Shown here: in pieces, positions 940-20,000 of the stretch | How positions within the stretch are numbered: the stretch's first letter is position 1 | Layout of the letters: each line of letters starts with the position of its first letter | IMG/VR virus record: IMGVR_UViG_3300010334_000053 | Strand: one strand, 5' to 3' | DNA: 20,000 nucleotides | Source: an uncultured virus (IMG/VR IMGVR_UViG_3300010334_000053) | Taxonomy: Duplodnaviria > Heunggongvirae > Uroviricota > Caudoviricetes | Notes under the pieces: generated by a model | What the model saw: the letters and a program-made list of their open reading frames with translations, nothing else | Databases searched by the model: none | What the model was told of the DNA's origin: nothing | Made by a program: the position numbers and the translations under genes

Positions 940-972
940 GTCTGTGTCCTTGTGTGTTTAACTTACACACAA

Positions 973-1001: not shown

Positions 1002-1043
1002 TTGTTCTTGGGGAAAATAATGTGACAGGGCAGATTTTTCTGC

Positions 1044-2526: not shown

Positions 2527-2537
2527 TATCTAATTCC

Positions 2538-2663: not shown

Positions 2664-2913
2664 AGCTAGATCCATTATCGTAGGAGGAAGTATCAGTGCT
2701 CATAATGCTGCTAATAACTTCTGCTGCAATGATTGTATCAATGATTGTATCGACAATATCTGGACCGGAATCATAATTTGAGTTAGACTCTACGTGAGCA
2801 ACATATATGCTGCGAGTGGTAGTTGTTTTAACAGCAGTGCCACCTGTAGGAGGCATAGTAGGCGCTGCGGACAACTTCTTGTATTCCTTGTTACGCTTAA
2901 AAAATGAAAACAT
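2629..2913 (-). CDS. hypothetical protein with Ser/Asp-rich C-terminus
   Basis: ORF with AAGGA RBS directly downstream of a sigma70 promoter. Confidence 0.65.
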   Translation of the reverse strand: MFSFFKRNKEYKKLSAAPTMPPTGGTAVKTTTTRSIYVAHVESNSNYDSGPDIVDTIIDTIIAAEVISSIMSTDTSSYDNGSSYDSGSSDYRRN

Positions 2914-2940
2914 AAATGTTCCTTTGTTGTTTACTCATAT

Positions 2941-2969
2941 AGTATACAAAACTTATTACATGGAGTCAA
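2941..2969 (-). promoter_or_regulatory. sigma70-type early promoter
   Basis: TTGACT-17 nt-TATACT. Confidence 0.8.
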
Positions 2970-2972
2970 GAC

Positions 2973-3006
2973 AAAAAATAGCTCTGGCAAATTAATGCCA
3001 GAGCTA
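2973..3006 (-). terminator. intrinsic terminator
   Basis: TAGCTCTGGCA/TGCCAGAGCTA 11-bp stem followed by T6 on the minus strand. Confidence 0.7.
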
Positions 3007-3074
3007 AATAATGGTGCGAATCGCGACAGTGGGGATTGTCCATTCGCTCTAACAGTTTAGAAGGAACTATCAGT
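3005..3074 (+). promoter_or_regulatory. late promoter (TAAATA) plus structured leader of endonuclease gene
   Basis: GCGAAT/ATTCGC stem, inner GACA/TGTC, TCTAA, AGTT/AACT hairpin over the RBS; covaries with 1044-1112. Confidence 0.65.
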
Positions 3075-3701
3075 ATGAATATTTATTACGTCTATGCTTA
3101 TCTCCGTAAGAAAGATCTCACACCATATTATATCGGTAAAGGTAAAGATAATCGTGCTTATCGCAAACATAATGTACCTGTACCAAGGGATAGGTCTATG
3201 ATTGTTTTTCTAGAAACAGGATTAACCAATATTGGTGCCTGCGCATTAGAACGACGCTATATCAGGTGGTATGGACGAAAAGATTTAGGTACAGGAATAT
3301 TGCGAAATAGAACTGATGGCGGCGACGGTATACCGGGAATCTTGCACACAGTTGAACGAAATCAAAAAATTAGTAAAAAACTAAAAGGTAAATTTGTATC
3401 AGAAACTACTAGAAAAAGACTTAGTGATTCTCATATAGGAAAACAAACAGGATCTAATAATGGAATGTTTGGTAAAACTCATTCTGAAAAAGTAAAGAAT
3501 GATCATAGATTGCGTATGATAGGTAATAAAAATAGTCTAGGAAATAAGCATACCGAAGAAGCTAGATTAAAGCAATCACTACGTGCTAAGAATAGGGAAA
3601 TTAAAATATGTCCCCACTGTGGATTTGGATGTACTGGATCAAATTATACAAGATGGCATGGGGATAATTGTAAAAAATTAGGTCAAAAAAATATTGGGTA
3701 G
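3075..3701 (+). CDS. GIY-YIG homing endonuclease with NUMOD3 motifs
   Basis: [28 protein letters not shown] repeats, CPHC..RWHGDNC; start moved to ATG 3075 after AAGGA. Confidence 0.85.
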
Positions 3702-3723
3702 ACGCTAATCTACCCAATATTTT
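3687..3723. terminator. bidirectional terminator hairpin between convergent genes
   Basis: AAAATATTGGGTAGA/TCTACCCAATATTTT inverted repeat. Confidence 0.75.
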
Positions 3724-3733
3724 AAGTTATGTA

Positions 3734-5158
3734 TTAGATGTCGTATCGTGGATCCATGATAGTTGACATCATAATTCCCACCGGCGTAAATTTATCCATT
3801 TCTGCTGACAGTATGGACTTCATAATAGCCGGAGAAAATCCGCTCACAAGTGCCGCACCGCTCTTGTCTGCCTTCACAGGAACATTATCTGAACTGTTAA
3901 GATTCCAAAATACTATTGCAGGAACCTGATATCCCGCTTCTGCGTACTTGCGTTCAATCATTTCCATAGCAGAATCATCATTTCTGATGCACTGATTGAA
4001 CTGCATATCACTGAGCACCAAAAGGATCTCAGGCATTTCACTCTGAGGTACACCGTTCTTGACTGCAACATCAAGAATCTTGTTGAATGCAGCGTGTAGG
4101 TTAGTACTCATGCCCCATTCGCTCTTGACCATCTGTGCAGCCTTTTCAACAACATTGCCCTTGAGAGTAACTAGCTGAGGACTGGAACTGAAAGTAAGGA
4201 AAGTGTCCTTGAACTTGCCAGTGTTCTTGTCCGCAAGATAGAGACCCAGTGAAACTGCAACGTCAAGGCAAGTAACCTCACTCTTAGAAGAGCTACCACC
4301 TGCACGACAAGTCATAGAACCCGAAACGTCAACCAGTGGAAGGATGTTTGCATCCCCAACGTAGTTAGGAAGCGCATTCCACTGTGCCACAACATGGTCA
4401 AGTTCAGTCTTACCAAGTGCTACGCGACTGTAAGGATTGATTACACCCTTGAGAACGTCATACGGATACACTGCGCCAGCGTTGACCTTTACAGTAGGAT
4501 CACCCTTTACCAGCTTGGCAACATACTCGGCAAACTTTGGAGTATTGCGAGTAAAAGCCTTCTTGTAGCGCGAAGCTGCAAGACTAGGAACATGGTTAAA
4601 GTTGATGTTATCCCAATCCTTAGAACACATCTGAGTTTCAACAACCCGGGTCAGGTTAACCAGCGTCTTACGATACTGCTTAGGGCTCATACCAAGTGCA
4701 GATCGAAGTTCTGCTGCCACTGCGCCCTTGCGAGGCATCCACTTGGCGCAAAGACCATTGCCACTGGCAAGTGCATCTGCGATCAGTGCGTATGCTTCGG
4801 TCTTGAGATCGATGGTTTCAAAGACGAGTAGATCGTCCCATCGACCAATTTCTGGTACCTTTGCAAGAAGTGCCTTTGCTGCATCGGTGTCAGTCTTTTC
4901 CAGCTGAACAAGGATGTCACGGAAAATCTTACGTTCGCCTGCACCGCCACGAGCGTCACGCGCCCACTGTGCAACGCGCAGTGCAATTTCTCGATTTTCC
5001 ACGAATGCGCCAGTGAAGGCAGGCACGATGTCCTTGCCACGCGATCCGCCAACGGCAAAGAAAAGGTCGACGTTCTTGGACGCTGACGACTTAAGAGCCT
5101 TCATACCATTTGCAGTCCTTGCAGATTGATTTGCAACCGCTTCAATAAAAGTAGACAT
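3734..5158 (-). CDS. Ro60/TROVE-like protein (DUF2828-type helical domain plus C-terminal VWA)
   Basis: RDARGGAGER, GRWDDL, AKWMPR, MIDAS DVSGSM, LSDMQF, FWNL, LVSGFS motifs. Confidence 0.8.
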   Translation of the reverse strand: MSTFIEAVANQSARTANGMKALKSSASKNVDLFFAVGGSRGKDIVPAFTGAFVENREIALRVAQWARDARGGAGERKIFRDILVQLEKTDTDAAKALLAKVPEIGRWDDLLVFETIDLKTEAYALIADALASGNGLCAKWMPRKGAVAAELRSALGMSPKQYRKTLVNLTRVVETQMCSKDWDNINFNHVPSLAASRYKKAFTRNTPKFAEYVAKLVKGDPTVKVNAGAVYPYDVLKGVINPYSRVALGKTELDHVVAQWNALPNYVGDANILPLVDVSGSMTCRAGGSSSKSEVTCLDVAVSLGLYLADKNTGKFKDTFLTFSSSPQLVTLKGNVVEKAAQMVKSEWGMSTNLHAAFNKILDVAVKNGVPQSEMPEILLVLSDMQFNQCIRNDDSAMEMIERKYAEAGYQVPAIVFWNLNSSDNVPVKADKSGAALVSGFSPAIMKSILSAEMDKFTPVGIMMSTIMDPRYDI

Positions 5159-5171
5159 AGTTATTTCCCTT

Positions 5172-5204
5172 CAGTTTAGGTTAAAAAATTGCTGTTACTA
5201 AACT
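5172..5204 (-). promoter_or_regulatory. 5' UTR hairpin with CAGCAA motif (payload-free copy of the ncRNA family)
   Basis: AGTTTAG-TAA-CAGCAA-TTTTTTAAC-CTAAACT-G directly before RBS AAGGGA of the Ro-like gene. Confidence 0.65.
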
Positions 5205-5218
5205 TTATTTGTTCTCAC

Positions 5219-5247
5219 ATTATATACAAAAATTATTTTTGTGTCAA
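5219..5247 (-). promoter_or_regulatory. consensus sigma70 promoter of the Ro-like gene
   Basis: TTGACA-17 nt-TATAAT. Confidence 0.85.
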
Positions 5248-5976
5248 TCGTTTTTTTGCTATTTTAGAAGTTATTCCGACATAGTCCCAATTTTCTTTAG
5301 GTCCTGTTTGTGACCAAAATACGGTTTTTGGCACTCTTATACAATTTCCTTGCCTATCAACAACGGATACTGTTTCTTTTATTTCCAGCCAATTGTGGGT
5401 ACCTTTTGCTACCCTATCTGATGCTACAGAGGTGCCATCTGCACGTTTTAATAAATTATGAGTGCCATTTTTAACACGCTTATTATTAAGATCAGTTGAG
5501 TGCTGTGAACCTTTTTCGCCTTGAAAATTATGTCTTCCTTCTTTAACTAACTTGGCAGTTCGTTCTTTTGCAAATTTTGAACCTGTTTCTCCCTGCCACG
5601 GGTGTGTTCCGTTTTCGACCATTTTTCTTGCTTTAATTGAAGAAGCAATTTTCATATTTTTAGTATTGTGTTTCTTGTGGCCTTTGTCACTTCCTCCATC
5701 AATACCGTTTTCTATTTTAAAATTTGCCCATTCCTTTGATTCAACAATATTATTATTTTTTGAAAACGTTGATGCAGCTTTTATGCATTCATTTTTGTCT
5801 TCAAAGAATCCAATAATTTCGGTTTCAAATAATTTACCATGTTTTCGTAAATGTGCCAGCCAATATTCACCAGATCCAGTATATTTGTATGGATCAGAAC
5901 TAATAGTTTTTCCAAAATACTTTAAGCCAGTTATTGTGTGGGTTTTAACATAAAGATATGTAGGTTTAAAAGACAT
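5233..5976 (-). CDS. GIY-YIG-like homing endonuclease with GxH(N/P)-aromatic repeats
   Basis: YLYVKTH..GLKYFGKT..YTGSG..W..H, WANFKIENG; TAAATA and AAGGAG upstream. Confidence 0.75.
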   Translation of the reverse strand: MSFKPTYLYVKTHTITGLKYFGKTISSDPYKYTGSGEYWLAHLRKHGKLFETEIIGFFEDKNECIKAASTFSKNNNIVESKEWANFKIENGIDGGSDKGHKKHNTKNMKIASSIKARKMVENGTHPWQGETGSKFAKERTAKLVKEGRHNFQGEKGSQHSTDLNNKRVKNGTHNLLKRADGTSVASDRVAKGTHNWLEIKETVSVVDRQGNCIRVPKTVFWSQTGPKENWDYVGITSKIAKKRLTQK

Positions 5977-6026
5977 AAAAACTCCTTTTTAAGTATTTAT
6001 GTCTAGTACGCGCTTCTTGATTAAAA

Positions 6027-6132
6027 CAGGATGTTGTGACATTAAAAGACCGGGAGTCGAACCCATTGTCACTGTCCCCACTGGACTGGCCCGCTAGTTT
6101 TGGCAGCGAATAATGATTGCGGTAATCATCCT
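6027..6132 (-). ncRNA. carrier-stem ncRNA with tRNA elbow mimic (Y-RNA-like)
   Basis: AGGATG/CATCCT closing stem, CCGCAA motif, D-like GTCC-AGTGG-GGAC, T arm GGG-TTCGACT-CCC. Confidence 0.65.
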
Positions 6133-6152
6133 AAAATATGATTTGAATTAAA

Positions 6153-6216
6153 CAGGATGCCTTTTTTGCTTTTTTGATTACAAGTCAAGTGCATAAAGGT
6201 TTGCTGAAAGCATCCT
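6153..6216 (-). ncRNA. carrier-stem ncRNA with Thr(UGU)-like anticodon hairpin
   Basis: AGGATGC/GCATCCT stem, CAGCAA, apical TTGA-CTTGTAA-TCAA. Confidence 0.65.
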
Positions 6217-6227
6217 AAAACTTAATT

Positions 6228-6413
6228 TTAGATTGTTTGTTCGTGTTGTTCTATTAATCTATCTATCCAAAAAATCCACCAAGCCTGTTGCAATGCTTTA
6301 TATAACTCTATTGCAGCAGGATCTTTTTGAATATGTACTAAATCAGATTCGGTCGGGTGTGTTTCTCTATACCAAGAAGCAAACGTAGTCGAATCATGTT
6401 GTCTTTTTTTCAT
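6228..6413 (-). CDS. small hypothetical protein
   Basis: ATGA overlap with the Pth2 stop. Confidence 0.6.
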   Translation of the reverse strand: MKKRQHDSTTFASWYRETHPTESDLVHIQKDPAAIELYKALQQAWWIFWIDRLIEQHEQTI

Positions 6414-6808
6414 GTAAACGTCTTTAACGCTTTGATATCGTCACCAATATTTTCTTCTGCAATTGGACCAAGTCCTAAACAGGTCGTGGTCGGCTCGTCG
6501 AACACAGTAAATGCAGCATCAGTTACAAGACTAGTACCACAGATATCCTTGTACTTGTCTTGCAGCACACGTAGTTCTTCTACAGTGTCTACAATCAGCG
6601 TGATCTTATAAGCCCGATCGCCATTCTGGTACTTTTCTGCATCACTAGGTCCGTCACTGGCAAATCCATGTTCACCAGGAAATCTTTTTACAGAATCCCA
6701 AAAACTGTGAAGGTAGGCGTGTCCTGCCTGAGTACACATCTTACCACGAATGCCGTTCATTTTCTTTACCGATTCAAGGGCAAAGATACAGTACATTTTA
6801 ACTTTCAT
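6410..6808 (-). CDS. pth2: peptidyl-tRNA hydrolase, Pth2 family
   Basis: GKMCTQAGHA, KITL, DAAFTV, TTTCLGLGP; true start MKVKMY (the ORF-track extension overlaps tRNA-Cys). Confidence 0.82.
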   Translation of the reverse strand: MKVKMYCIFALESVKKMNGIRGKMCTQAGHAYLHSFWDSVKRFPGEHGFASDGPSDAEKYQNGDRAYKITLIVDTVEELRVLQDKYKDICGTSLVTDAAFTVFDEPTTTCLGLGPIAEENIGDDIKALKTFT

Positions 6809-6826
6809 ATCTCTACCTTTCAAAAT

Positions 6827-6904
6827 TGGAGCGCCGGGCGTGATTCGAACACGCGGTGTTACTGCTTTGCAGGCAGTTGCATTGGGCCTCTCTGCCACCG
6901 ACGC
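6827..6904 (-). tRNA. tRNA-Cys(GCA)
   Basis: Cloverleaf, ACTGC-CTGCAAA-GCAGT, U73, CCA. Confidence 0.92.
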
Positions 6905-6917
6905 ATTATTTAAATTC

Positions 6918-7005
6918 TGGCGGAGCGTGTGGGAATCGAACCCACTCTACCCATTTAGGTAGTACAGATTAGCAGTCTGCTGCATTACCGGCCTGCCCAC
7001 GCTCC
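6918..7005 (-). tRNA. tRNA-Ser(GCT)
   Basis: GCAGA-CTGCTAA-TCTGT, long variable arm, CCA. Confidence 0.92.
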
Positions 7006-7020
7006 GTATTTGTTGTTGCA

Positions 7021-7049
7021 ATTATAGTACTATTTATTAGCAGTGTCAA
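7021..7049 (-). promoter_or_regulatory. consensus sigma70 promoter with TAAATA late box in the spacer
   Basis: TTGACA-CTGCTAATAAATAGTAC-TATAAT. Confidence 0.85.
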
Positions 7050-7057
7050 CGCTAAAT

Positions 7058-7474
7058 TTACAATCCTGCCTTTTTTACTAACTCTTTATATCCAGCCCAG
7101 CTAGGATGAATATGATCAGGTTGTACACGCTTAGTTGCAATAATCTGATCGCCATGTTCGTGTGCTAGTTTCTCAACAATTGCATTTACATTTTCTTTAC
7201 AAAACTTTTCATTGCACGGCGGCATAATCCATACAACACGACTTGAGTGGACACGATTTCGCATCTTACGAAGTTCTGCTTCAGTATGAATGAACTGATG
7301 ATCATTAGTGCCAAGACTAATGACAACTAGCTTAGAATCAAGAGCAGTATTGCCCCATTTCTTGTTCCACTGCCACGTGTTATATCCACCTTTAGCATAT
7401 GAAACACATTGCTTAGGTGCAAACATTTCAGTACCAACGGCGATACTATCGCCGATAATTAAACATTCCAACAT
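7058..7474 (-). CDS. SGNH/GDSL-like hydrolase
   Basis: IGDSI, SLGTND, DHIHP blocks. Confidence 0.8.
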   Translation of the reverse strand: MLECLIIGDSIAVGTEMFAPKQCVSYAKGGYNTWQWNKKWGNTALDSKLVVISLGTNDHQFIHTEAELRKMRNRVHSSRVVWIMPPCNEKFCKENVNAIVEKLAHEHGDQIIATKRVQPDHIHPSWAGYKELVKKAGL

Positions 7475-7614
7475 TAATCACCCTTTACTGTTTTTGCCTT
7501 ACCATCTTGTACTAGCTTGTGACGCGCTTTATTCACCCTGGGAGTAGGAGCATCGCCACCGGCAAATTCATGCTTGGTAAGCAATAGGTCTTTATGTTGA
7601 ATAAATTCTTCCAT
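7474..7614 (-). CDS. small hypothetical protein (MEEFIQHK..., 46 aa)
   Basis: TAATG overlaps at both ends. Confidence 0.5.
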   Translation of the reverse strand: MEEFIQHKDLLLTKHEFAGGDAPTPRVNKARHKLVQDGKAKTVKGD

Positions 7615-8223: not shown

Positions 8224-8412
8224 TTAAGCCTGACCGTTTTTCCAGTCATCTTCGGTGATTTCAAAGTCGGCATTTTTAACAGACTTAATGGCTCTAAACA
8301 CGGTTACTACACCTAAACACACAGCACCGGTTACACCAAATACTGCAAGAAATGCAATTTTTGGACCTAGAATTCTTGCCTGCTCATATACTGCATGTTT
8401 GATCTGTTTCAT
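8224..8412 (-). CDS. small membrane protein (62 aa)
   Basis: Hydrophobic segment; paralog at 8423-8524. Confidence 0.65.
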   Translation of the reverse strand: MKQIKHAVYEQARILGPKIAFLAVFGVTGAVCLGVVTVFRAIKSVKNADFEITEDDWKNGQA

Positions 8413-8536
8413 TGTGGTAGCCTTATTTACTCATCAAGTAAAACACACCAAATACTGCAAGAATTGCAATCTTTGGACCTAAAATTCTTGCTTGTTCATA
8501 TACTGCATGTTTGATCTGTTTCATTGTGGTAGCCTT
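8332..8536. repeat. tandem direct repeat, ~93 bp units offset by 112 bp
   Basis: 8332-8424 versus 8444-8536 differ at about 6 positions. Confidence 0.9.
8423..8524 (-). CDS. 33-aa membrane peptide, paralog of 8224-8412
   Basis: MKQIKHAVYEQARILGPKIAILAVFGVFYLMSK; mostly synonymous divergence from the paralog. Confidence 0.6.
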   Translation of the reverse strand: MKQIKHAVYEQARILGPKIAILAVFGVFYLMSK

Positions 8537-9650: not shown

Positions 9651-10391
9651 TTATTTTGTAATAACAGGCTGTCCTGCGGCACCTACCGCTTGAGTAGTTG
9701 CAGTCTTTCCGATATTAGCTCCAAATGATAGTTTTCCTTTGACATAAGTTAAAATGTCTAAGAAATACTTTTTCACAGTTGCCATATGATCGAAAAATCC
9801 CATAAATCCTGGCATAGTAACATTTGTAATGATTCCTGCAAATTCTTTAACTTTGTCTACTATAACATCGGTGGCTGTTGAAATTGCAGTTTGAGTCATA
9901 GTTGCTGCTTTTAATAGCATATCTTTAAGATAGCTTAAGAATCCATATAGTCCCAATTTTGCCAAAAATCCTTTCCATCCAGTAGTTTGCATAAAACTAT
10001 TAATAGAAGGTTGTAACATATTCCATAGTTTTTCAACAACAGGCGAAATTGCAGGAATTTTTGTTTTAATTTCAGTAATTAGTGCAACTACTGTTTTTTG
10101 CACATTACGGCACTGTTTGCCTAATTGTGCAACGGTACTATCCATCATTGCTTGATCGGACACAACGTCTTTGATCAAAATTGCCGCAGTTTTAACATCC
10201 GTTATAGCACCCTTGATATCATTGACGGTTTTCGTATACTGATTGCCCAAGTATTGTTTGGCCGAATCTAAAAATCCCTCATAGATTATTTGCTCGGTTA
10301 ATATACTTTTACTGTAGTAAACACCTTCGCAAAGGTATAGATTTTTTAATACAGTATTCTGATTTTCGTAAAGGATTTCATTTATACGCAT
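9651..10391 (-). CDS. hypothetical late helical protein
   Basis: AATAAATA 4 nt before ATG; MRINEIL N-terminus. Confidence 0.72.
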   Translation of the reverse strand: MRINEILYENQNTVLKNLYLCEGVYYSKSILTEQIIYEGFLDSAKQYLGNQYTKTVNDIKGAITDVKTAAILIKDVVSDQAMMDSTVAQLGKQCRNVQKTVVALITEIKTKIPAISPVVEKLWNMLQPSINSFMQTTGWKGFLAKLGLYGFLSYLKDMLLKAATMTQTAISTATDVIVDKVKEFAGIITNVTMPGFMGFFDHMATVKKYFLDILTYVKGKLSFGANIGKTATTQAVGAAGQPVITK

Positions 10392-10401
10392 CAACTATTT
10401 A

Positions 10402-10581
10402 TTAATAAATATCAATGTCGCGGTTCAGCAAGTGGCGAGCCACACGATGTTCAAGTTTCTTATCGCGGCTACGAGCCTTCTTGCTACGACGGTTGTTGTA
10501 AGTTTCAGTGGGGAAAGTATCATGTCCAGGGCAGCAACGACCGATACTACCGGGCTTGGCAAAATGGATATCACGCTTCAT
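10402..10581 (-). CDS. small basic protein (59 aa)
   Basis: AGGAG RBS, MKRDIHF...; the ORF-track extension overlaps tRNA-Val. Confidence 0.6.
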   Translation of the reverse strand: MKRDIHFAKPGSIGRCCPGHDTFPTETYNNRRSKKARSRDKKLEHRVARHLLNRDIDIY

Positions 10582-10597
10582 TTTACTTCTCCTATAA

Positions 10598-10672
10598 TGG
10601 TGTGCGATGAGGGATTTGAACCCCCGACTTTCACCGTGTCGAGGTGACACTCTACCGCTGAGTTAATCGCAC
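10598..10672 (-). tRNA. tRNA-Val(GAC)
   Basis: TCACC-TCGACAC-GGTGA, CCA. Confidence 0.88.
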
Positions 10673-10679
10673 ATTAAAT

Positions 10680-10804
10680 TGGTGGACCCGACTGGATTTT
10701 CACCAGTATCTCTGTTGTTCATCGGCACTAAGTTTATCCGGAAATCTCAATGTCGGTATCTGGTGCTTTGATTACTTCCGTCGAAGGTTTTAAGCTACAG
10801 GCCC
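10680..10804 (-). ncRNA. 125-nt tRNA-like RNA with Ala identity (G3:U70, A73, CCA)
   Basis: Acceptor GGGCCTG/CGGGTCC, T arm ACTGG-TGAAAAT-CCAGT, expanded D arm, long internal hairpin. Confidence 0.7.
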
Positions 10805-10810
10805 ATAATT

Positions 10811-11818: not shown

Positions 11819-12376
11819 TTATCTGGAGTTTGCTATACTGGTCAACAGTGCTTTTACTCTTCCAAATGGCATTTTGTCAATATTCTGAATAAATTTTGGA
11901 TCAAATGGCAACTTTGTTAGTGTTTGTTGCACAGATTGCAGTGATGCCAGTGTTTTCTTTGCTGTTGCACGTTGTTCGCCTGCTTGATATGTATTAGCAA
12001 TTCCTTGTGCTGCTCCAGTTGCTGCTCCGCCAATTGCTTTTCCTGCCTGCTGTGCTGCTCCAGATGCTGCCTGACCTGCTTGCTGTGCTGCGCCGCCAAT
12101 TGCCTGTCCTGCTTGCTTCAATGCACCACCAACTGCTTGACCGGCGCCTGCTGCTGCCTGGCCGACACGGCTTGCCGCGCCGCCCACTGCTCTTGAAGCT
12201 GCTCCACCAAGCGCACTAAGACCACCCAGTAATTCACTCAATTCAGCTTCTGATAATTCACCGGATTCAATCATCTGGGTGATTCTGTTGGACTCTAAAA
12301 GAGCCTGACTTTTTACATCAGAAGTACCATCTTCGATGGTTTCAATTAATTTAACTAAATCTCTCATGGATTCCAT
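11819..12376 (-). CDS. Ala/Gly/Gln-rich late protein
   Basis: TAAATA plus AAGGAG before ATG 12376; GQA(I/V)GGA repeats. Confidence 0.7.
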   Translation of the reverse strand: MESMRDLVKLIETIEDGTSDVKSQALLESNRITQMIESGELSEAELSELLGGLSALGGAASRAVGGAASRVGQAAAGAGQAVGGALKQAGQAIGGAAQQAGQAASGAAQQAGKAIGGAATGAAQGIANTYQAGEQRATAKKTLASLQSVQQTLTKLPFDPKFIQNIDKMPFGRVKALLTSIANSR

Positions 12377-12436
12377 GACAATATCTCCTTTTATTTTATT
12401 TATGCGATTAAACACATAATATAAAATTAGAAGAAA

Positions 12437-12508
12437 TGGTAGCTCGTGCAGGTACTGCCCCTGCCTAGACTCCCGTATGAGAGGAATCCGTCCACTTAGA
12501 CCCGAGCC
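12437..12508 (-). tRNA. degenerate tRNA(CAT) (Met/Ile2-like)
   Basis: TTCCT-CTCATAC-GGGAG, T stem GCAGG/CCTGC with non-canonical loop GGCAGTA, CCA. Confidence 0.6.
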
Positions 12509-12536
12509 ATGGTTTTAATAATTAGTTCACTGATTT

Positions 12537-13895
12537 TTATGACCAGTCGTCTTTGGGAACTTCTTTTTTATAGCTTTGAAGATGCTTGACAATCTTTTTC
12601 AAATATAGCTTCCAAACTTTTAAAAATTGAAGTTCTCTAGCAGATGGATTTGAATTTTGCATTGCCTGCTTTGCTGTAGGAGCAATTATTGATGGATAAG
12701 TATTATTTGGAAAATATCCCCACTTGACATCCTCAATTGCCGAATCAACGAATTCATTGACCTGACGCTGTTTATCATTTGTGGAATATGAATATCGAAA
12801 AGGCTCATTAGAGATGAAGTCCGAGTACAACTGGGTGGCAGCATGTGAAGCATGTGCTTCAATTTCATTGACAGAACCTAAATATGCTGCCCAGCGATCT
12901 ACATTGTATCCAAAATTGTCAGCATCATATGCATTTTGACCTCTCCTACCACCACGATATTTGCGGCGCCGGTTGTCTTTTTGACCGGCTTTTCCTCTTG
13001 TGTCATTTTTGTCATAAGCATAAAGTTTTGGCCTAGGAACACTTGTATCAGGAATCTTGGTGTAATCGCCTTTTCCATATCCACGGTTAGATGACTGCAT
13101 CTTGATATTAGCACGAGCATTCTGATCCATATGAACAACTTCGTGTACGTAAGTACTGACTAATTCTTTAAGAAATGCAGGGACAGGATTATCAACGCCA
13201 CTATCTCCATAACGATTTACGGAATCCCTTTCCAATAATCTGTGGGTTAATACAGTCCATAATTTTTCTTTAGAAGTATATATATTGATGTGCTGCGCAA
13301 GATCGTTCTGCCAATCAATTTGTTGTGACGATCTGCTATGTAAAGTGGATTTTTGTGGAAGACGTTGAAAATACCCGCCGCCAGTCTTTGGTTCGCCAGT
13401 GCGTTTATTTTTGCCAGTTGTGTCAAGTTGAACAATGATGTGCTGAAGCCAATACAAGTTCTTCTTTCTGTTTTCTTCCCATGGCTCATCATGTTTATAT
13501 TGTTCAATCTTACCAAACTGTGCTTCCATGTAATCACGTGCCAAATCCTGTAGATGAAGTTCCATTACATCAATGAATTCATCTACAATATCAATATTCG
13601 GCTCACTTTTGTATAGTTTTGATTGCACGATGCCACTGAGATCTTGTGACTTATATTGAAGATTGGATACAAGTTTATCTTCCTCACGCCGATCTAATCC
13701 ACGACCACGAATTTCTTCAACTCTATTTTCAAGAGAACTCATCTTTTTAAAGTAATTGCCTTCTCCTACTGAATCAAAAATAGATTCAGCATTCCACCTA
13801 ATAAATTGATCGATTTCTCGGGTAAGAAGATCATACGTGGCCTGAGTTAAGCCTGCTGTTTGATCGATTGCTTCTATGAGTTCTGTAATACGCAT
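12537..13895 (-). CDS. late protein with putative zinc metallopeptidase motif
   Basis: HEVVH plus downstream EIEAH; ATAAATA just before ATG. Confidence 0.65.
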   Translation of the reverse strand: MRITELIEAIDQTAGLTQATYDLLTREIDQFIRWNAESIFDSVGEGNYFKKMSSLENRVEEIRGRGLDRREEDKLVSNLQYKSQDLSGIVQSKLYKSEPNIDIVDEFIDVMELHLQDLARDYMEAQFGKIEQYKHDEPWEENRKKNLYWLQHIIVQLDTTGKNKRTGEPKTGGGYFQRLPQKSTLHSRSSQQIDWQNDLAQHINIYTSKEKLWTVLTHRLLERDSVNRYGDSGVDNPVPAFLKELVSTYVHEVVHMDQNARANIKMQSSNRGYGKGDYTKIPDTSVPRPKLYAYDKNDTRGKAGQKDNRRRKYRGGRRGQNAYDADNFGYNVDRWAAYLGSVNEIEAHASHAATQLYSDFISNEPFRYSYSTNDKQRQVNEFVDSAIEDVKWGYFPNNTYPSIIAPTAKQAMQNSNPSARELQFLKVWKLYLKKIVKHLQSYKKEVPKDDWS

Positions 13896-13908
13896 GTTGT
13901 ATTTATCA

Positions 13909-13984
13909 TGGTGCTGTATGACGGAATCGAACCGCCGACATCCTGATTACTAAACAGGTACTCTACCAACTGAGTTAATACAGC
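13909..13984 (-). tRNA. tRNA-Thr(AGT)
   Basis: Loop TTAGTAA, canonical D and T arms, CCA. Confidence 0.85.
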
Positions 13985-13995
13985 ATTAATTTTGG

Positions 13996-14074
13996 TGGAG
14001 CGCCAGACAGGATTCGAACCTGCATGTGATCCATTAGCTTTCTCCTGATTCGAAGTCAGGCGGCGTACTGGCGC
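13996..14074 (-). tRNA. D-armless tRNA-Arg(TCG)-like RNA
   Basis: GCGCCAG/CTGGCGC, 7-nt connector, CCTGA-CTTCGAA-TCAGG, 20-nt variable region, canonical T arm. Confidence 0.7.
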
Positions 14075-14091
14075 ATTTTTTATATGATAAT

Positions 14092-14280
14092 TTATCGAAA
14101 AGTTTTTCGACGAGGACCTTTGTCCCTATTAGGAATGGCATGATGTCTGGCCCAGGCCTCGTCTGTAAACCCAGGGCCGTACTTTGCCAAAAGAACTTCT
14201 GCTTCGCCTGAACTTACCAGAGACATCCATTCCTGATGATCATATCGTACTCCTGACTTTGATAATGTAATAGCTGGCAT
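14092..14280 (-). CDS. small hypothetical protein
   Basis: AAGGAAG RBS; lies between tRNAs. Confidence 0.6.
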   Translation of the reverse strand: MPAITLSKSGVRYDHQEWMSLVSSGEAEVLLAKYGPGFTDEAWARHHAIPNRDKGPRRKTFR

Positions 14281-14299
14281 TCTTTCTTCCTTTATTTGA

Positions 14300-14375
14300 T
14301 GGTGCGCATGGCAAGAGTTGAACTTGCGACCTACGAGTTATCAGCTCGTTGCTACTACCACTGAGCTACACGCGC
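14300..14375 (-). tRNA. tRNA-Ile(GAT)
   Basis: ACGAG-CTGATAA-CTCGT, CCA. Confidence 0.9.
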
Positions 14376-14381
14376 ATTTAA

Positions 14382-14579
14382 TTAGTTTTCAATTATTCCT
14401 GTTACCCAGTTTTCAGCGGTATCCTCCGCGTACCGCATTGAATGTTCAGAAACATCGATAAGTTTAGCTGGATATTGTTGAACATAACATTCAACTTTTA
14501 ATCCCGCTTCGTCTTTGAAAATAATGGCACTGCGATCACTGTGATCAGAATCGCCATTATACTTTGAAATAATTTCCAT
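14382..14579 (-). CDS. small hypothetical phage protein
   Basis: GAGG RBS; HSMRYAEDTAENWV motif. Confidence 0.65.
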   Translation of the reverse strand: MEIISKYNGDSDHSDRSAIIFKDEAGLKVECYVQQYPAKLIDVSEHSMRYAEDTAENWVTGIIEN

Positions 14580-14596
14580 TAATACCTCTTAAATAC

Positions 14597-14670
14597 TGGA
14601 TGCCCCCCTTGGATTCGAACCAAGATTGACGGATTCAAAGTCCGCGCTCTTACCTTTAGAGGAAGGGGCA
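14597..14670 (-). tRNA. tRNA-Gln(TTG)
   Basis: GCGGA-CTTTGAA-TCCGT, U1-A72, CCA. Confidence 0.9.
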
Positions 14671-14687
14671 ACATTAATTATTTGTGT

Positions 14688-14716
14688 ATTATATACGCTG
14701 TTGATTATGATGTCAA
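14688..14716 (-). promoter_or_regulatory. consensus sigma70 promoter
   Basis: TTGACA-17 nt-TATAAT. Confidence 0.85.
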
Positions 14717-14750
14717 TTGGTATTATTCAAATTATTTTGTAAAGTTAGTG

Positions 14751-14823
14751 ATGCTCTCCCAGGGGTCGAACCTGGAACCTTCTGAGTCAGAGTCAGACGT
14801 GCTGCCAATTGCACCAGAGAGCA
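14751..14823 (-). tRNA. tRNA-Gln(CTG), CCA not encoded
   Basis: TCTGA-CTCTGAC-TCAGA; TGCTCTC/GAGAGCA acceptor. Confidence 0.88.
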
Positions 14824-14828
14824 ATAAA

Positions 14829-15308
14829 TTATTTTTCTTGCCTTAAGGAAAAAACTTCTATTGCGGCTAGAATGTGTTCATCCTGTAGACCTTCGCCGTC
14901 TTCAATATACACTAGCCGTTTAGATTCAGTAAACTTTCTGTCATCAAAGCAAACCCAATCGCATTCACCATTGTCAGCGATCCACTGATTAATGGCAATT
15001 AATCTACCAATACCACGAACAGTGCTTGTCACATCTGTATAATCAATGTTCGGAAAAATTGTTCTCCAATCATTGTGAAAATGTGTTGGATCAATTCCCC
15101 AATGTATTAAATCTTCTTTTAAAGTTTTTCCATAGGGCAAGTGATAATTGTGCATGGAGTTGGTTACAATTTTTGCACCAGACTCAAGGCACAGATCATT
15201 GAGCAATTGAATTGAAACTTTATTACAAGCTAACCGCAGTTCAGATACCATGACTAGAGAACTTACATTAATTATTGGACCATCAATATCTAAAAATATT
15301 ATTCTCAT
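14829..15308 (-). CDS. HAD-family phosphatase (Swiss-Army-Knife RNA-repair type)
   Basis: IFLDIDG, IVTNS, R..AI..W, CFDD, GL motifs. Confidence 0.72.
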   Translation of the reverse strand: MRIIFLDIDGPIINVSSLVMVSELRLACNKVSIQLLNDLCLESGAKIVTNSMHNYHLPYGKTLKEDLIHWGIDPTHFHNDWRTIFPNIDYTDVTSTVRGIGRLIAINQWIADNGECDWVCFDDRKFTESKRLVYIEDGEGLQDEHILAAIEVFSLRQEK

Positions 15309-16186
15309 CTTTTAATTAATTCTTCTGTTAAGTCTATAAAACGAGAAAAGTCATGTAGCTTGTTCTTCCAATCATCAGGAATGTTCGAAAGGCCATAAAA
15401 TGCACCAGCAATTTGTCCAGTAACTGCGGCAACAGTGTCAGTGTCATTGCCCAAGTTAGTGGCAAGTAAAATTGCATCTCGAAAATTATCTGTTTGATAC
15501 ACGCACCATAGGGCAGCATGAAGAGTATGGATAACATATCCAGATGATGAAACATGATCACGACCAACTTCAAGTGATGTGAGAATGTCCTTTACACTCT
15601 GTACCCAATGCTCTTTAGCAGTTATATTAAAGATGCGACTCTTTTCAGTAGCATAGATTGCATTAAGTAACACTTCCGCCATAAGTTCACATGAATGTAA
15701 ACAAGCAGGTGAAGCATGAGTTGTTTCGCTCTGTAAGTTTGCCGTTTCAATTGCCATTTCTTCATTGTCGTAATGTGCAATCACTGCTGGACTCAGGCGC
15801 ATAATTGAACCGTTGCCGGCGTTATATACAGACTTGTTGTTAGTTACTGAGCCAGTTTCAACATAATCCATAATACCACTAATAGTAGTGTTGCCAATGT
15901 CAAAACACCTACCAGTTGATGAGTTTGTTCCATTACTGTACCAATCTACAAAACGATCCAGCAAATCAGCTTTATCAAGCTGGGAATTAGCGATAAGACT
16001 TTCTGCAAGGCAAAGTGCCATACTAGTATCGTCAGTCCAATAACCTACAGGAAGATTGAACGGTCCACCACCAAGCATGTCAGTAACAGGTTCAAAAGTA
16101 TCACGTTCTCTAAATTCCACGGCGGCGCCAACACAGTCTCCAATAGCAAGCCCAATAAATGCTCCAGCTAATTTGTCTTTTAACAT
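15305..16186 (-). CDS. ADP-ribosylglycohydrolase (DraG/ARH family)
   Basis: GDCVG, WTDDT, GNGSIMR, TTH, DTDTVAAVTGQIAGA. Confidence 0.92.
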   Translation of the reverse strand: MLKDKLAGAFIGLAIGDCVGAAVEFRERDTFEPVTDMLGGGPFNLPVGYWTDDTSMALCLAESLIANSQLDKADLLDRFVDWYSNGTNSSTGRCFDIGNTTISGIMDYVETGSVTNNKSVYNAGNGSIMRLSPAVIAHYDNEEMAIETANLQSETTHASPACLHSCELMAEVLLNAIYATEKSRIFNITAKEHWVQSVKDILTSLEVGRDHVSSSGYVIHTLHAALWCVYQTDNFRDAILLATNLGNDTDTVAAVTGQIAGAFYGLSNIPDDWKNKLHDFSRFIDLTEELIKR

Positions 16187-16209
16187 AATAACTCCTAGTG
16201 TAAAAAAAT

Positions 16210-16238
16210 ATTATAACACTAGAATGAATTGCTGTCAA
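16210..16238 (-). promoter_or_regulatory. consensus sigma70 promoter of the ARH-HAD operon
   Basis: TTGACA-17 nt-TATAAT. Confidence 0.85.
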
Positions 16239-18978
16239 CTATCTCCATGCCAAGATTTGCTATATAAGCCATTAACTCTTCAATCTCTTGACTGGTTGGA
16301 TTTAATGTGCCAATAGCTTGATCTAATTGATCAATATTTACTTGATTTGACTGTGCTGCACTCTTAATCAATTGTTGAACAGCAGGTAAATCTTTCAATG
16401 GTGTTTTTTTCTTAGCAATATCCTGTATTGGAAAATCTAAAAGTTGCAATTGTTTGAACCCAATATAGTTAGTAGAGCCATCTGAAAAGGTTACATCTGC
16501 GATTTTCATTATATTGGCTACATGAGCTATCTTACCAGTTTTGCCGGCAGCAGGCCCATCAATAACTTTAACAGAATCGCCTTGTTTAAACGAATGGACA
16601 GGTATTACTTCAGGTTCAGAAGTTTTAATTTTTTCAATTTCACTAGGATAAAGAAATGTCTTATCATCAGAATCGTCTAATTTTACTATAACATTGCCAC
16701 TTTTTTGAATCTGAGTTATTGTGCCAGTTTTTCCTGTATTGTGCGTTCCTATGATTTTTACCTTATCGCCCTCTGAATATTGTTTAGGTGTTTTTACTTC
16801 TGGCTCTGGTTCCCACTTGAGATTGTCTAAGTTCAAATCTGGATCATTTTTATCGGGGTTATCAAGTTTTTTAACAGTGAATGTATCATCGCCGTATTCG
16901 TCTATAGCCTGATCATATTCATTCTGAGTGAGGAATTGTCCCTGATAAAGCGGTGTAAGTCCTGGCATAGTAACTTCATAAGCAGCATCTATTAAATTAG
17001 GATTTTCAGCTTCGGCTTTAATCTTTTCAATGTTTTTTAAAGGAACGTCATAAGCAAAGCCACTATCAAATTCTACATCAACTTGTGGGATTGTGGAATA
17101 AGCGTATATTATTTTACCAGTTTTACCGGCGGATGCATGGTCACCAATGATCTTAACCTTATCACCGTTTGAGACCTGACCAATTTCCAGAGTCTTTGGT
17201 GACGCCCCAATTTTTTCAAGATAAACAAAGGGAACATCATGTAATTTTTTACCGTTATCCAACACCAGCGTAGTGTCTTTATGAAAATCAAATACATCAT
17301 CAACAGTGGCTATATCACCTGCGTTAGGGTGCTTGCCAATAATTTTTACCTGGTCACCGACTTTGAAAGCGCCTGTAATTGTTTCTTCTGGTTTTTCTTC
17401 CGACTCTTCTGCATCTAATTTTTTAAATCCACCTGATAGAACATTACCGGATTCGCCGCTTTTGAAAAATATTTCAATCATGCCGCTGTTGTAAATATAG
17501 GATACTGTGCCAGATTGACCATAGTATTCACTATCAGTATTGGTGACTTCAACTGTATCACCTTTTTTAATTTTATCAGTGTCAGTTTTTGGTTCTAGTA
17601 TTTTAATTTGGTTTTGCTTAACAGTACCGTACTCGCCGCCTTTGAAAAATATCTCGATTCCACCATCCTTATATATGTAGGATATAGTTCCAGATCGGCC
17701 ATAATATTCACTATTAGTATCAGTAACTTCAACTGTATCACCTTCTTTAAGATCAGGAGTTTCTGAATCAGCTTCACTTTCGTGTTTAATATCTTTAATC
17801 TTGAAGTCGTTGGTCCAATTTTCACCATCCAACTTCACTGATACTTCGTCATAATTGGTGTAAACATACTGTACTTCACCGGACAGCCCGTAATAGTGAT
17901 TACCCTTGGATTTAACAGTAACACGGTCACCAATTTCATATTTTCCAGGTGTAATGATTTTAGGCTTGCCTTCGGGATAAACTTGTAGTTCTAGAAACTT
18001 CATGATATTTTTCATGAGACTTTCTTGAACAGCATAATATGCACCACGAACAAATACTTCTGAATGAGAAGTAATGGCACCTGTTAGGTCTTCTTGATCT
18101 AAATCAAATCCTTTGACTATTCCTTCAGGAGTCATGATGTTTTCAAGCTCAGTTAAAGGCATGAATTCTTTTGGGATGTCACCTGCTTCAATAGCTTGTT
18201 TAATTGAGTTAAGATTGGATTCTAGATCATATTGCCCAAAGAGATCATTAAAGGTAAAATTATATTTTGCTCCTAGTTTTTCTCGATTGGTTAACACGAA
18301 ATCTTTTAAAGGAGCAAGTAGTTCGTAGTCCAACATTTTTGGATAGGATCCTCTATCTAAAATTAAATCCTTGGTGTTTCGACTCCAGCTAAATGAAAAT
18401 CCATCTTTGGGAAACATTACATATACTTTGCCATATCCCGAAGCCTGACTTTTATCACCTGATACGAATGATGAATTATCTCTTCTTGCTTCGAATCCAG
18501 CTGCTTCCATGCCTTTGTTAAAAATATCACTGAGTCGTGAACTACTTGTCATTACACGGCGCTCATCAAATGGTTTACCATAGAGAGCATCTTCAGTGGA
18601 TTTAATTCCACGATAAAAAACTTTAGCATCTCGTGATTTAAAATCTGGATTTAGATCAATGTATGTTTGTACAATTTGTGTGCAATTGTTTGCAATCCTC
18701 GTCATTAAATTATAAAATTGGATTGGAAGATTATTCTTTTCACTTTTAAGATTTGACTTCTGTTGTTTTAGGGAATCAATTTCTGCATAGAGTCCCTGCT
18801 TCATTTTTTCATATTCAGCAGCAACTGAATCAGGCACTTTCATATTATTTGCAAGGGCCGCGCTTTCTTCATAATCAGTGATTTTCTTCAGCAGTTTTTC
18901 TAGTTTTGGCAAGTTAAGGGACATTCCCTTGCGCTCACCCGGCTTCAGTTCGGATTTAAAGATTTCTATAATTCTCAT
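16219..18978 (-). CDS. large late protein: putative ADP-ribosyltransferase domain, 7 KOW repeats, RpoC-like fragment, sigma70 region 1.1-like C-terminus
   Basis: FYRG/SFVS/SEV triad; GDxV..G..G repeats; PGLTPL..EYGDDTF; C-terminal helical segment ending GMEIVD. Confidence 0.7.
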   Translation of the reverse strand: MRIIEIFKSELKPGERKGMSLNLPKLEKLLKKITDYEESAALANNMKVPDSVAAEYEKMKQGLYAEIDSLKQQKSNLKSEKNNLPIQFYNLMTRIANNCTQIVQTYIDLNPDFKSRDAKVFYRGIKSTEDALYGKPFDERRVMTSSSRLSDIFNKGMEAAGFEARRDNSSFVSGDKSQASGYGKVYVMFPKDGFSFSWSRNTKDLILDRGSYPKMLDYELLAPLKDFVLTNREKLGAKYNFTFNDLFGQYDLESNLNSIKQAIEAGDIPKEFMPLTELENIMTPEGIVKGFDLDQEDLTGAITSHSEVFVRGAYYAVQESLMKNIMKFLELQVYPEGKPKIITPGKYEIGDRVTVKSKGNHYYGLSGEVQYVYTNYDEVSVKLDGENWTNDFKIKDIKHESEADSETPDLKEGDTVEVTDTNSEYYGRSGTISYIYKDGGIEIFFKGGEYGTVKQNQIKILEPKTDTDKIKKGDTVEVTNTDSEYYGQSGTVSYIYNSGMIEIFFKSGESGNVLSGGFKKLDAEESEEKPEETITGAFKVGDQVKIIGKHPNAGDIATVDDVFDFHKDTTLVLDNGKKLHDVPFVYLEKIGASPKTLEIGQVSNGDKVKIIGDHASAGKTGKIIYAYSTIPQVDVEFDSGFAYDVPLKNIEKIKAEAENPNLIDAAYEVTMPGLTPLYQGQFLTQNEYDQAIDEYGDDTFTVKKLDNPDKNDPDLNLDNLKWEPEPEVKTPKQYSEGDKVKIIGTHNTGKTGTITQIQKSGNVIVKLDDSDDKTFLYPSEIEKIKTSEPEVIPVHSFKQGDSVKVIDGPAAGKTGKIAHVANIMKIADVTFSDGSTNYIGFKQLQLLDFPIQDIAKKKTPLKDLPAVQQLIKSAAQSNQVNIDQLDQAIGTLNPTSQEIEELMAYIANLGMEIVDSNSF

Positions 18979-18980
18979 AA

Positions 18981-18998
18981 ACATATTTATAAATATGT
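18981..18998. promoter_or_regulatory. palindromic bidirectional late promoter
   Basis: ACATATTTATAAATATGT contains TATAAATA on both strands between divergent genes. Confidence 0.75.
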
Positions 18999-19001
18999 AT
19001 T

Positions 19002-19757
19002 ATGAAAATAAAAGATCTTTTAAATGAAACCGCTATACAAGAGGGTCCGTATGATCCTCACATTTTTAAAGCAGTTTTTATGGCCGGAGCACCAGGTGCT
19101 GGTAAAACAACTACCGCTAATAAGCTACTCTCTGGTACAGGTCTAAGACACCTCAATGTTGATGATTTTTATAATCTTATGAGACATAAAGGACGCGCTA
19201 GTGGCGATCAAAACAAGGATTACGAAGCATCTTGGAAAACGTATCGCGGCCTAGAAGAATTACTTCGTCAAGGTCGAATTGGTTTAATCATTGATAGTAC
19301 TGCGAAGAATCCAGAAAAGATGGCTGATGTTAAAGCAGACCTAGAAGAAATGGGTTATGAGACTGCAATGATTTTCGTTAACTCATCATTAGAAACAAGT
19401 CTCAAAAGAGCCGCTGAACGTTCACAACGTCCTGGTCCAGACTTTGGAAGAGTAACTCCACCAAAACATATTGAAGATACCTGGAATAAGGTGCAAAAGG
19501 GAATAGGTTCATTACAGAACTTATTTGGAGCAAGGTTCTTTGTTATCGATGCTGAACGTCCCGATGCCAGCATTAACTATGTTGACAAGAGTATTAGATC
19601 TTGGCTTAACACGCCAGTTAAAACACAGGCAGCACGACAGTGGTTATCTGATCCTAAAGCTGCACAAAAGCAAACAAGCACAAAGCCAGCAAAAGATGAA
19701 CCTGCACAAACAACAGGTCAACGCCCTGCTGAACCGGAAACTCCCAAAGAAGTATAA
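19002..19757 (+). CDS. P-loop kinase (AAA_33/zeta-toxin/polynucleotide-kinase-like)
   Basis: GAPGAGKT, NVDD, IIDST, RxxxR lid. Confidence 0.75.
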   Translation: MKIKDLLNETAIQEGPYDPHIFKAVFMAGAPGAGKTTTANKLLSGTGLRHLNVDDFYNLMRHKGRASGDQNKDYEASWKTYRGLEELLRQGRIGLIIDSTAKNPEKMADVKADLEEMGYETAMIFVNSSLETSLKRAAERSQRPGPDFGRVTPPKHIEDTWNKVQKGIGSLQNLFGARFFVIDAERPDASINYVDKSIRSWLNTPVKTQAARQWLSDPKAAQKQTSTKPAKDEPAQTTGQRPAEPETPKEV

Positions 19758-19760
19758 AAA

Positions 19761-19863
19761 CAGGATTGTGTTTTTTTAGGCGGGAATCGAACCCGCTCCG
19801 TTTGCGTTGAAAGCAAATGCTCTACCGATGAGCTACCTAATGGTTTTTTGCTGAAACAATCCT
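19761..19863 (-). ncRNA. carrier-stem ncRNA enclosing a tRNA-like cloverleaf with UCA anticodon
   Basis: AGGATTGT/ACAATCCT, CAGCAA, D arm, TTTGC-TTTCAAC-GCAAA, T arm, short acceptor, no CCA. Confidence 0.7.
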
Positions 19864-19878
19864 AAAATTCAAATTAAA

Positions 19879-20000
19879 CAGAGTGTATTGTTCTTTACGT
19901 GCTCTACCAGCTGAGCTACCTCCCCGCAGTTGGTGGGAAGGGTTGGACTCGAACCAACGACACCGTCCTTTTCATGGATAGAATTTTATGCTGAAAACAC
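19879..20000 (-). ncRNA. carrier-stem ncRNA containing a circularly permuted tRNA-Phe(GAA)-like domain (5' end at window edge)
   Basis: GTGT..CAGCAT..ACACTCTG; order is anticodon hairpin, T arm, 3' acceptor+CCA, 5' acceptor, D arm. Confidence 0.75.

Follow-up and report, generated by a model that had tools for sequence, protein, structure and literature searches.

Y RNAs, represented by YrlA (RF02553), D. radiodurans Yrn1 and phiLo Yrl1/2, are approximately 100 nt long, pair their 5' and 3' ends, expose a short single-stranded motif close to the 5' end and carry a tRNA-like cargo; several occur per genome, and their genes lie close to a gene for a Ro60-fold protein, in many cases immediately ahead of it. 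They tether or scaffold RNA enzymes, for example PNPase in RYPER (PMC4201824, PMC12135203). Class I RNAs (RF01414; PMC7919456) have a short terminal stem with an AG start and a CUGU end, an unpaired motif beside the 5' arm and a variable middle; Kjellin et al. describe them as unique to dictyostelids, and DDB_G0281243 is an uncharacterised Class I RNA partner in Dictyostelium. The viral RNAs described below are like Y RNAs in size, paired ends, a short unpaired 5' motif, cargo, copy number and gene neighbourhood, and like Class I RNAs in stem, ends, motif and variable middle.

The DNA analysed here (hereafter, the window) is a stretch of 20,000 nucleotides from an uncultured virus (IMG/VR IMGVR_UViG_3300010334_000053). 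It comes from a large phage genome and holds a minus-strand tRNA cluster with 17 ARAGORN calls. Two contigs, G002 and G001, which are 100% identical to the window over positions 12127-20000 and 1-7238, respectively, extend it, and G002 adds 26 calls upstream.

A cloverleaf RNA closed by a terminal stem

An earlier note on this DNA had described a tRNA-like cloverleaf with an opal-reading UCA anticodon at 19761-19863 and gave no strand for it. The element lies on the minus strand and comprises the following features:

19863-19761, minus strand: cloverleaf handle RNA of 103 nt, recognised by ARAGORN, Rfam and folding (handle model R1, 29.2 bits, E 4e-4)
19848..19863, minus strand: 5' arm of the terminal stem and unpaired TTCAGCAA motif, conserved in the family; a putative protein-binding handle
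19801..19817, minus strand: anticodon arm with the loop UUUCAAC, UCA at 19810-19808 and C38
19761..19769, minus strand: terminal stem, 3' arm, ending in a conserved CUG; identified by pairing and family conservation

The three tRNA arms of the earlier description are real. Specifically, the D stem pairs GCTC with GAGC (19833-19830 / 19822-19819), the anticodon arm reads TTTGC-TTTCAAC-GCAAA with TCA at 19810-19808, both on the minus strand, and the T arm reads GCGGG-TTCGATT-CCCGC; CCA is absent. The enclosing CAGCAA carrier is confirmed as well, as the cloverleaf is closed by an 8-bp terminal stem (AGGATTGT/ACAATCCT, 19863-19856 / 19769-19762) that is followed by the motif TTCAGCAA, with UUCAGCAA directly after the stem. 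The acceptor is indeed weak and lacks CCA, but the 4-5 bp TTAGG/CCTAA helix claimed for it does not hold, since it needs C65 borrowed from the T stem. In the tRNA register, the acceptor has two contiguous pairs and four of seven in total, and no acceptor helix forms in the predicted ensemble of the RNA.

ARAGORN labels the cloverleaf 'tRNA-SeC(tca)' (19772-19843), and the Rfam tRNA model scores it at 50.1 bits with mismatches flagged in the acceptor stem; a long variable arm is absent. Its fold energy is -30 kcal/mol (z -3.2), a stability that none of 200 shuffles equals, with pair probabilities of 0.85-1.0 in the D, T and terminal stems and 0.54-0.84 in the anticodon stem. The 3' end abuts the stop codon of an opposite-strand gene at window 19002-19757 (+), which encodes a Zeta-toxin/AAA-type kinase. 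Promoter and terminator scans remained at chance level, and searches of cultured phages and plasmids gave the cloverleaf RNA partial matches of the tRNA type only. Two metatranscriptome assemblies include parts of the window, one contig spanning 19806-20000; because this cover is thin and spread over 25 and 6 of 30 bins, coding DNA included, it shows neither transcription nor RNA ends.

A constant handle with swappable cargo

The cloverleaf RNA is a member of a multicopy phage small-RNA family with a constant handle and swappable cargo. The handle consists of a 7-8 bp terminal stem with an AG start and a CUG end and an unpaired CAGCAA motif, and the cargo lies inside it. Stem and motif occur five times in the window, each time around a different cargo; upstream, G002 contributes three or more further copies. 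Besides the cloverleaf RNA, the window contains:

19879..20000, minus strand: handle RNA with permuted T-acceptor-D (YrlA-like) cargo (Rfam YrlA 37 bits, E 1e-6, cut-off 69), whose start lies 3 nt past the window edge and is seen in G002
6152..6218, minus strand: short handle RNA with an anticodon stem-loop (UGU) only (R1 61.7 bits, a score obtained with near-identical copies in the training set)
6026..6134, minus strand: handle RNA with a CCGCAA variant motif and a cargo of hairpins and a T-arm-like element (motif and R1 model)
5171..5206, minus strand: empty handle whose end lies 14 nt ahead of the start codon of DUF2828; a putative autoregulatory site
3734..5158, minus strand: DUF2828/DUF7788 protein of 474 aa (Pfam), predicted by structure model, Foldseek and VIA-align to form a Ro60-like ring of helical repeats and a vWA domain; the candidate partner

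A rough classifier sorted the cargo of 184 distinct canonical handles: 46 carry a bare anticodon stem-loop, 23 a permuted T-D module, 18 a T arm only and 4 a D-T arrangement like that of the cloverleaf RNA, the other 93 falling outside these types. The handle stem covaries at four of seven pairs, with pairing itself being part of the filter; its inner U-A pair, which the filter does not require, is fixed in 183 of 184. At a single locus, seven copies or even more can occur, with differing cargo.

Pattern scans of GTDB genomes returned 42 matches, of which the one with a closing stem is an ordinary tRNA, and DUF2828 is not nearby; with neither a true handle nor DUF2828 at these matches, no cellular member was seen. 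In the open-access literature, large motif catalogues aside, we found no description of the handle RNA family or of an RNA partner of DUF2828. The main text and six supplementary files of PMC10690425 contain no match, and three further files of that paper may hold the motif.

The anticodon loop switches triplets among homologs

Pattern scans with the anticodon left free matched at least 120 viral stretches, and a stricter pattern matched 19 viral and 109 metagenome stretches. Together with 80 DUF2828 loci, the scan matches yielded 47 distinct sequences with a closing stem; after removal of three ordinary tRNAs and one sequence with a long insert, 43 homologs remained, for which the filter had required the AG and CUG ends. 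Thirteen distinct loop triplets occur among them, namely UCU (10), UCC (9), UCA (7), UGU (4), UUU (3), UAA (2, of which one has a poor stem), CUU (2) and CAU, AUU, UAG, GCA, AUG and UUC (1 each). The anticodon, whose conservation the earlier note had proposed to check, thus varies, and UCA is found in just 7/43 homologs. When a looser closure rule was applied to the stricter-pattern matches, 38 of 93 distinct sequences were members (UCU 8, UCA 8, UCC 8), and 47 of the remaining 55 are ordinary tRNAs with a 7/7 acceptor. A scan restricted to UCA yielded two further variants, together with a UCA cloverleaf that lacks CCA and lies in a GOLLD-like setting. The latter (L421, 301-420) has an A-UUCAA-A loop and GOLLD-like flanks and comes from a complete phage without DUF2828.

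L021 (UCU) and L258 (UCA) have the same sequence except in the loop, as do L225 (UCC) and L261 (UCU), and across 12 close pairs the anticodon diverges at 0.11 per site, compared with 0.03 outside the loop. In a loop-masked tree, for which the short alignment gives weak support, UCA appears at four or more places. Other loop positions are held, with U33 in 43/43, A37 in 42/43, U34 in 37/43 and C35 in 27/43, while position 36 is free, and the anticodon stem keeps its pairing through base changes. Retention of U33, A37 and the stem indicates a loop that is constrained, yet not stop-specific.

Additionally, A36 is coupled to C38, which is present in 7/10 mimics with A36 and in 3/33 without it; among genuine phage tRNAs at related loci, 12 of 195 A36 tRNAs with CCA have C38. 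The sequences in this comparison are related, so its p-values overstate the significance. MiaA modification follows the pattern pyrimidine-32, A36-A37-A38. All seven UCA loops lie off it, five through C38 and two through A32, and the A36-C38 coupling avoids the A36-A37-A38 signal.

The acceptor has 0-5 contiguous pairs in 43/43 homologs and never 7 bp; the D, T and anticodon stems are kept with compensatory changes in all 43 distinct copies, and the acceptor is lost in all. A reversed Levitt pair, U15-A48, is found in 17/43, with 15/48 covariation that is not clean. As judged from these alignments, the UCN loop of an unchargeable RNA repeatedly takes the UCA state, and UCA is not a stop-specific device.

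Handles accompany DUF2828 genes

For the linkage set, 320 viral loci encoding a close DUF2828 homolog were reduced to the best 80. Handles are present in 76 of the 80, with 264 copies on the gene strand and 7 on the opposite strand, compared with 12 in shuffles, and in 63/77 loci with room upstream a handle ends at most 40 nt from the DUF2828 start. In the reverse direction, DUF2828 is encoded in 18/26 contigs picked for the cloverleaf type (mostly less than 30% complete), compared with 13/48 larger tRNA-bearing contigs, these being drawn from the 50 largest among at least 120 tRNA-bearing viral matches. Among measured copies of the cloverleaf homologs, 18/21 lie on the same strand as DUF2828 and within 4 kb of it; the cloverleaf RNA of the window is 14.6 kb from its DUF2828 gene.

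Among tRNA-bearing viral contigs chosen without regard to the protein, a rule-based detector, tuned after the positive loci were known, found handles in 10/10 windows with a full phage-type DUF2828, three of which are close relatives, and in 1/15 windows taken from contigs that lack DUF2828 and are at least 90% complete, where the single match looks coding; seven of these 15 negative windows hold three or more tRNAs. Over whole contigs, the short-handle model matched 5/13 DUF2828-positive and 3/35 negative contigs, including 0/15 of the negatives that are at least 90% complete. Four incomplete contigs (G019, G023, G024 and G042) carry handles in the absence of DUF2828, the detector found none in two windows around distant DUF2828 genes, and a gapped pattern was too noisy for co-occurrence analysis in the 48 contigs. 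Handles and DUF2828 are both present in the cultured phages BUCT194, Ci1 and Bas63.

DUF2828 genes occur in 710 phage records and also in fungi and Nucleocytoviricota/giant viruses. Of 80 loci found with eukaryote-type DUF2828 sequences, 64 were searched; three of these, of giant-virus type, carry tandem handle arrays and 61 lack nearby handles. The arrays (L446 6005-6324, L439 64-215 and L443 18-179) lie at most 600 nt upstream of DUF2828 on the opposite strand, in divergent orientation, and an NCLDV major capsid protein is encoded on L446 as well.

The model of the window DUF2828 protein (mean pLDDT 75.5, pTM 0.73) has a predicted Ro60-like fold. In particular, all 13 Foldseek matches with E < 0.001 are Ro60 structures (E 5e-7 to 3e-4), and Ro60 takes the first three places in VIA-align (Z 12.8-13.1; 303-392 residues covered at an rmsd of 5.9-7.7), with vWA-only matches ranking lower. 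The likeness is modest by TM-score (0.30-0.54), and identity to solved Ro60 proteins is 11-17%; a PDB sequence search returned nothing useful, the fold search alone being informative. TROVE (PF05731) matched neither the window protein nor any of the five contigs tested, one of them complete.

Comparison with Y RNAs and Class I RNAs

With 103 nt and an 8-bp terminal stem, the cloverleaf RNA falls within the size range of Y RNAs (80-130 nt) and has their stem. The closest layout is that of D. radiodurans Yrn1, which has the same D-anticodon-T order. The neighbouring RNA at 19879-20000 shares the permuted order of YrlA and scores 37 bits against a cut-off of 69, whereas the cloverleaf RNA, with its D-anticodon-T order, has no YrlA match. 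Distinct from Y RNAs, the phage handle carries CAGCAA rather than GNCGAA, and the GNCGAA (or GGUCCGA) motif of Ro60 ligands is found in 0/43 homologs; the candidate partner, DUF2828/DUF7788, has no TROVE Pfam match. Moreover, the cloverleaf RNA has a full 5-bp stem and a canonical 7-nt anticodon loop with a switching triplet, whereas the loop is 6 nt in Yrn1 and missing in YrlA. Because it lacks both the GNCGAA motif and a TROVE partner, we do not class the cloverleaf RNA as a Y RNA.

The likeness to Class I RNAs extends to the motif. The cloverleaf RNA starts with UAG (AAG in Class I) and ends with CUGU, an end shared by 30/43 homologs, and it matches 5/5 of the near-invariant Class I motif positions T3, C6, C9, A10 and A11 given in PMC7919456. 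Across the 43 homologs, T3 is present in 26 and A11 in 43, C6, C9 and A10 having been preset in the search pattern. The entire RF01414 model aligns to five short phage siblings, whose scores of 26-34 bits fall short of the 41.5 cut-off, and the cloverleaf RNA itself gives no match. The two groups differ in length (42-65 nt for Class I RNAs and 103 nt here) and in the motif, which is one base closer to the stem in the cloverleaf RNA; the latter is viral, and the known Dictyostelium binder of Class I RNAs is the RRM protein Rnp1A. 'Phage' and 'virus' are absent from the main text of PMC7919456. Since AT-rich RNAs with a short motif can converge, the likeness may reflect either homology or convergence.

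A proposed bait on a Ro60-like ring

We propose that the cloverleaf RNA is an unchargeable tRNA mimic that partners a non-TROVE, Ro60-like DUF2828 protein in the manner of a Y RNA and serves as bait for host tRNA-directed enzymes, an overall reading in which we place somewhat better than even confidence. Genomic linkage and the predicted fold make it quite likely that the DUF2828 protein is the partner of the handle RNA; given that partnership, a bait role of the cargo is slightly favoured. Specifically, the RNA would be cut out of the tRNA-cluster transcript, and the DUF2828 ring would bind its handle, much as Ro60 holds Y RNAs by their terminal stem and 5' motif. The terminal stem would replace the acceptor arm and leave the RNA unchargeable, and the cargo would present a tRNA elbow and a U33-U34-C35-N36-A37 loop, with UCA as one state of a loop switching among UCU, UCC and UCA, to host proteins that recognise tRNAs. 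The likeliest purpose would be bait for, or competitive inhibition of, tRNA-directed defence enzymes, which would protect phage translation; the 'nuclease decoy' suggested in the earlier note is a plausible reading. The handle copy at the DUF2828 start codon suggests translational feedback, in which the ring may also bind its own leader.

The strongest rival is that the RNA is a tether or scaffold only, which binds the DUF2828 ring while its tRNA elbow recruits a host or phage RNA enzyme, such as PNPase (the case in RYPER) or this region's RNA ligase or phosphatases, the loop being merely tRNA-like. This is the job described for Y RNAs in PMC4201824 and PMC12135203, and it agrees with the arm order shared with Yrn1, with an RNA ligase, a HAD repair domain, PTH2 and an ADP-ribosylglycohydrolase encoded in the window, and with as many as thirteen triplets in the loop. 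However, 46/184 siblings present an anticodon stem-loop without any elbow. The U34-C35 bias and the A36-C38 coupling, which is common in mimics and rare in genuine phage tRNAs (7/10 vs 12/195), indicate that something appears to read the loop. A bait accounts better than a pure tether for the bare anticodon loops, the U34 bias and the rapid switching of the loop, and we consider the tether-only reading rather unlikely. Against the bait reading, we know of no enzyme that prefers UCU, UCC and UCA together.

The suggestion of a stop-codon or release-factor competitor, in which the UCA loop would pair with UGA stops and compete with release factor 2, fares worse and is improbable. UCA does recur, in 7/43 homologs (8/38 under the looser rule) and at four or more places of the tree, and the UCA-only scan adds two variants and the GOLLD-context cloverleaf. 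Against this, UCU and UCC are equally common, UCA and UCU twins match outside the loop, amber and ochre anticodons occur in 0/43, and 7/7 UCA loops fall outside the MiaA pattern. Without a charged 3' end, delivery by EF-Tu is impossible; lacking the acceptor end, the RNA can be neither charged nor delivered. The phage's own genes also end in TGA: it terminates 3/15 ORFs of at least 150 aa in the window, in agreement with the earlier note, and stands directly after the complete Pfam domain in the ADP-ribosylglycohydrolase gene.

It is still less probable that the RNA is a decayed, functionless tRNA gene caught in a processing hairpin. A broken acceptor, the position in a tRNA cluster and annotation by a tRNA finder would suit such a relic, yet 43 distinct copies maintain their D, T and anticodon stems by compensation while all lacking an acceptor, the family is linked to one protein family, and the phage retains genuine Arg(UCU), Gly(UCC) and Trp(CCA) tRNAs.

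Trimming from the handle into a working opal suppressor or a Sec, Trp or Gly tRNA deserves almost no credence: the RNA resembles an opal suppressor tRNA or tRNA-Sec in its UCA within a 7-nt loop with U33 and A37, ARAGORN labels it SeC(tca), and a single change separates UCA with C38 from the UCC-C38 loops in L174 and L294, but the acceptor stem (two contiguous pairs), CCA and long variable arm of such tRNAs are missing, the triplet is unconserved, TGA read as sense adds no coding cover in the window or G002, and, for RNase P, an acceptor of 7 bp ranks among the main determinants (PMC4201824). In coding cover, TGA read as sense brings no more than TAG does, and at three related loci TGA and TAG gains are alike and uninformative. 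The statement that the RNA is not a suppressor therefore stands, given the missing acceptor and CCA, the use of TGA as a stop and the homologs without a 7-bp acceptor.

The bait role on a DUF2828 ring can be related to a cultured phage. Bas63 gp130 belongs to the same DUF2828 family as the window protein (38% identity), and the tRNA cluster of Bas63 (L351) contains three handles, at 22240, 22695 and 22782, between annotated tRNAs; one has permuted T-D cargo, and two are overlapped by small annotated ORFs on the opposite strand. In PMC11482910, gp130 is reported to be Ro60-like and to counter the ppl defence system, and the authors guess that some 'tRNAs' near gp130 are its Y RNAs, with the RNA not named. 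The PhageMaP authors also propose there that ppl degrades DNA, not tRNA (PMC11482910), which counts against a bait role. Bas63, which infects E. coli, thus offers a laboratory system in which the DUF2828 protein has a counter-defence phenotype. DUF2828, so far without a named RNA partner, gains a concrete candidate ligand, and a class of phage 'Sec' or suppressor tRNAs is explained as misannotated.

More tentatively, we consider it possible, although doubtful, that handle RNAs and DUF2828 form a second Ro60/Y-RNA-like RNP family spanning phages, giant viruses and eukaryotes, with Dictyostelium Class I RNAs as cellular members and phage cargo as fast-changing anticodon baits against tRNA-cutting defences. 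The tandem handle arrays near DUF2828 in three giant-virus-type loci (3/64 searched) support such a spread. If so, Class I RNAs would be neither unique to social amoebae nor mechanism-less, and if their likeness is homology, their function would be testable via a possible DUF2828 partner in Dictyostelium.

Other features of the region and related loci

Genes among the tRNAs of the window include an RNA ligase (49-939), a PTH2 peptidyl-tRNA hydrolase (6410-6808), a HAD RNA-repair domain (14829-15308) and an ADP-ribosylglycohydrolase (15305-16186). Two 92-nt direct repeats, 95% alike and spaced 112 nt, lie at 8333-8536, and a CCA-ended tRNA-like gene with an atypical D arm at 13995-14076 (-), missed by ARAGORN, scores 40.7 bits in Rfam. 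CUA (amber) tRNAs with CCA are found in related DUF2828 phages (L142 4315-4388, L149 5463-5538 and L174 1371-1446).

Locus L130, on G002, holds a second ARAGORN 'SeC(tca)' call at 7454-7546, with an intact 7-bp acceptor and T arm, in which the anticodon arm is replaced by an apparent inside-out handle followed by CAGCAA. A second repeated scaffold recurs between its tRNAs at 2456, 2809, 5182 and 9409, with a GACTATTTTGATGAA-like 5' arm, a paired 3' arm, a variable insert and no Rfam match. A PP-loop (ATP_bind_3) protein, presumably TilS-like, is encoded at 10103-10807 directly after a CAU tRNA. Additionally, L130 8904-9393 is a GOLLD RNA (188 bits) whose insert resembles a permuted T-acceptor-D tRNA module.
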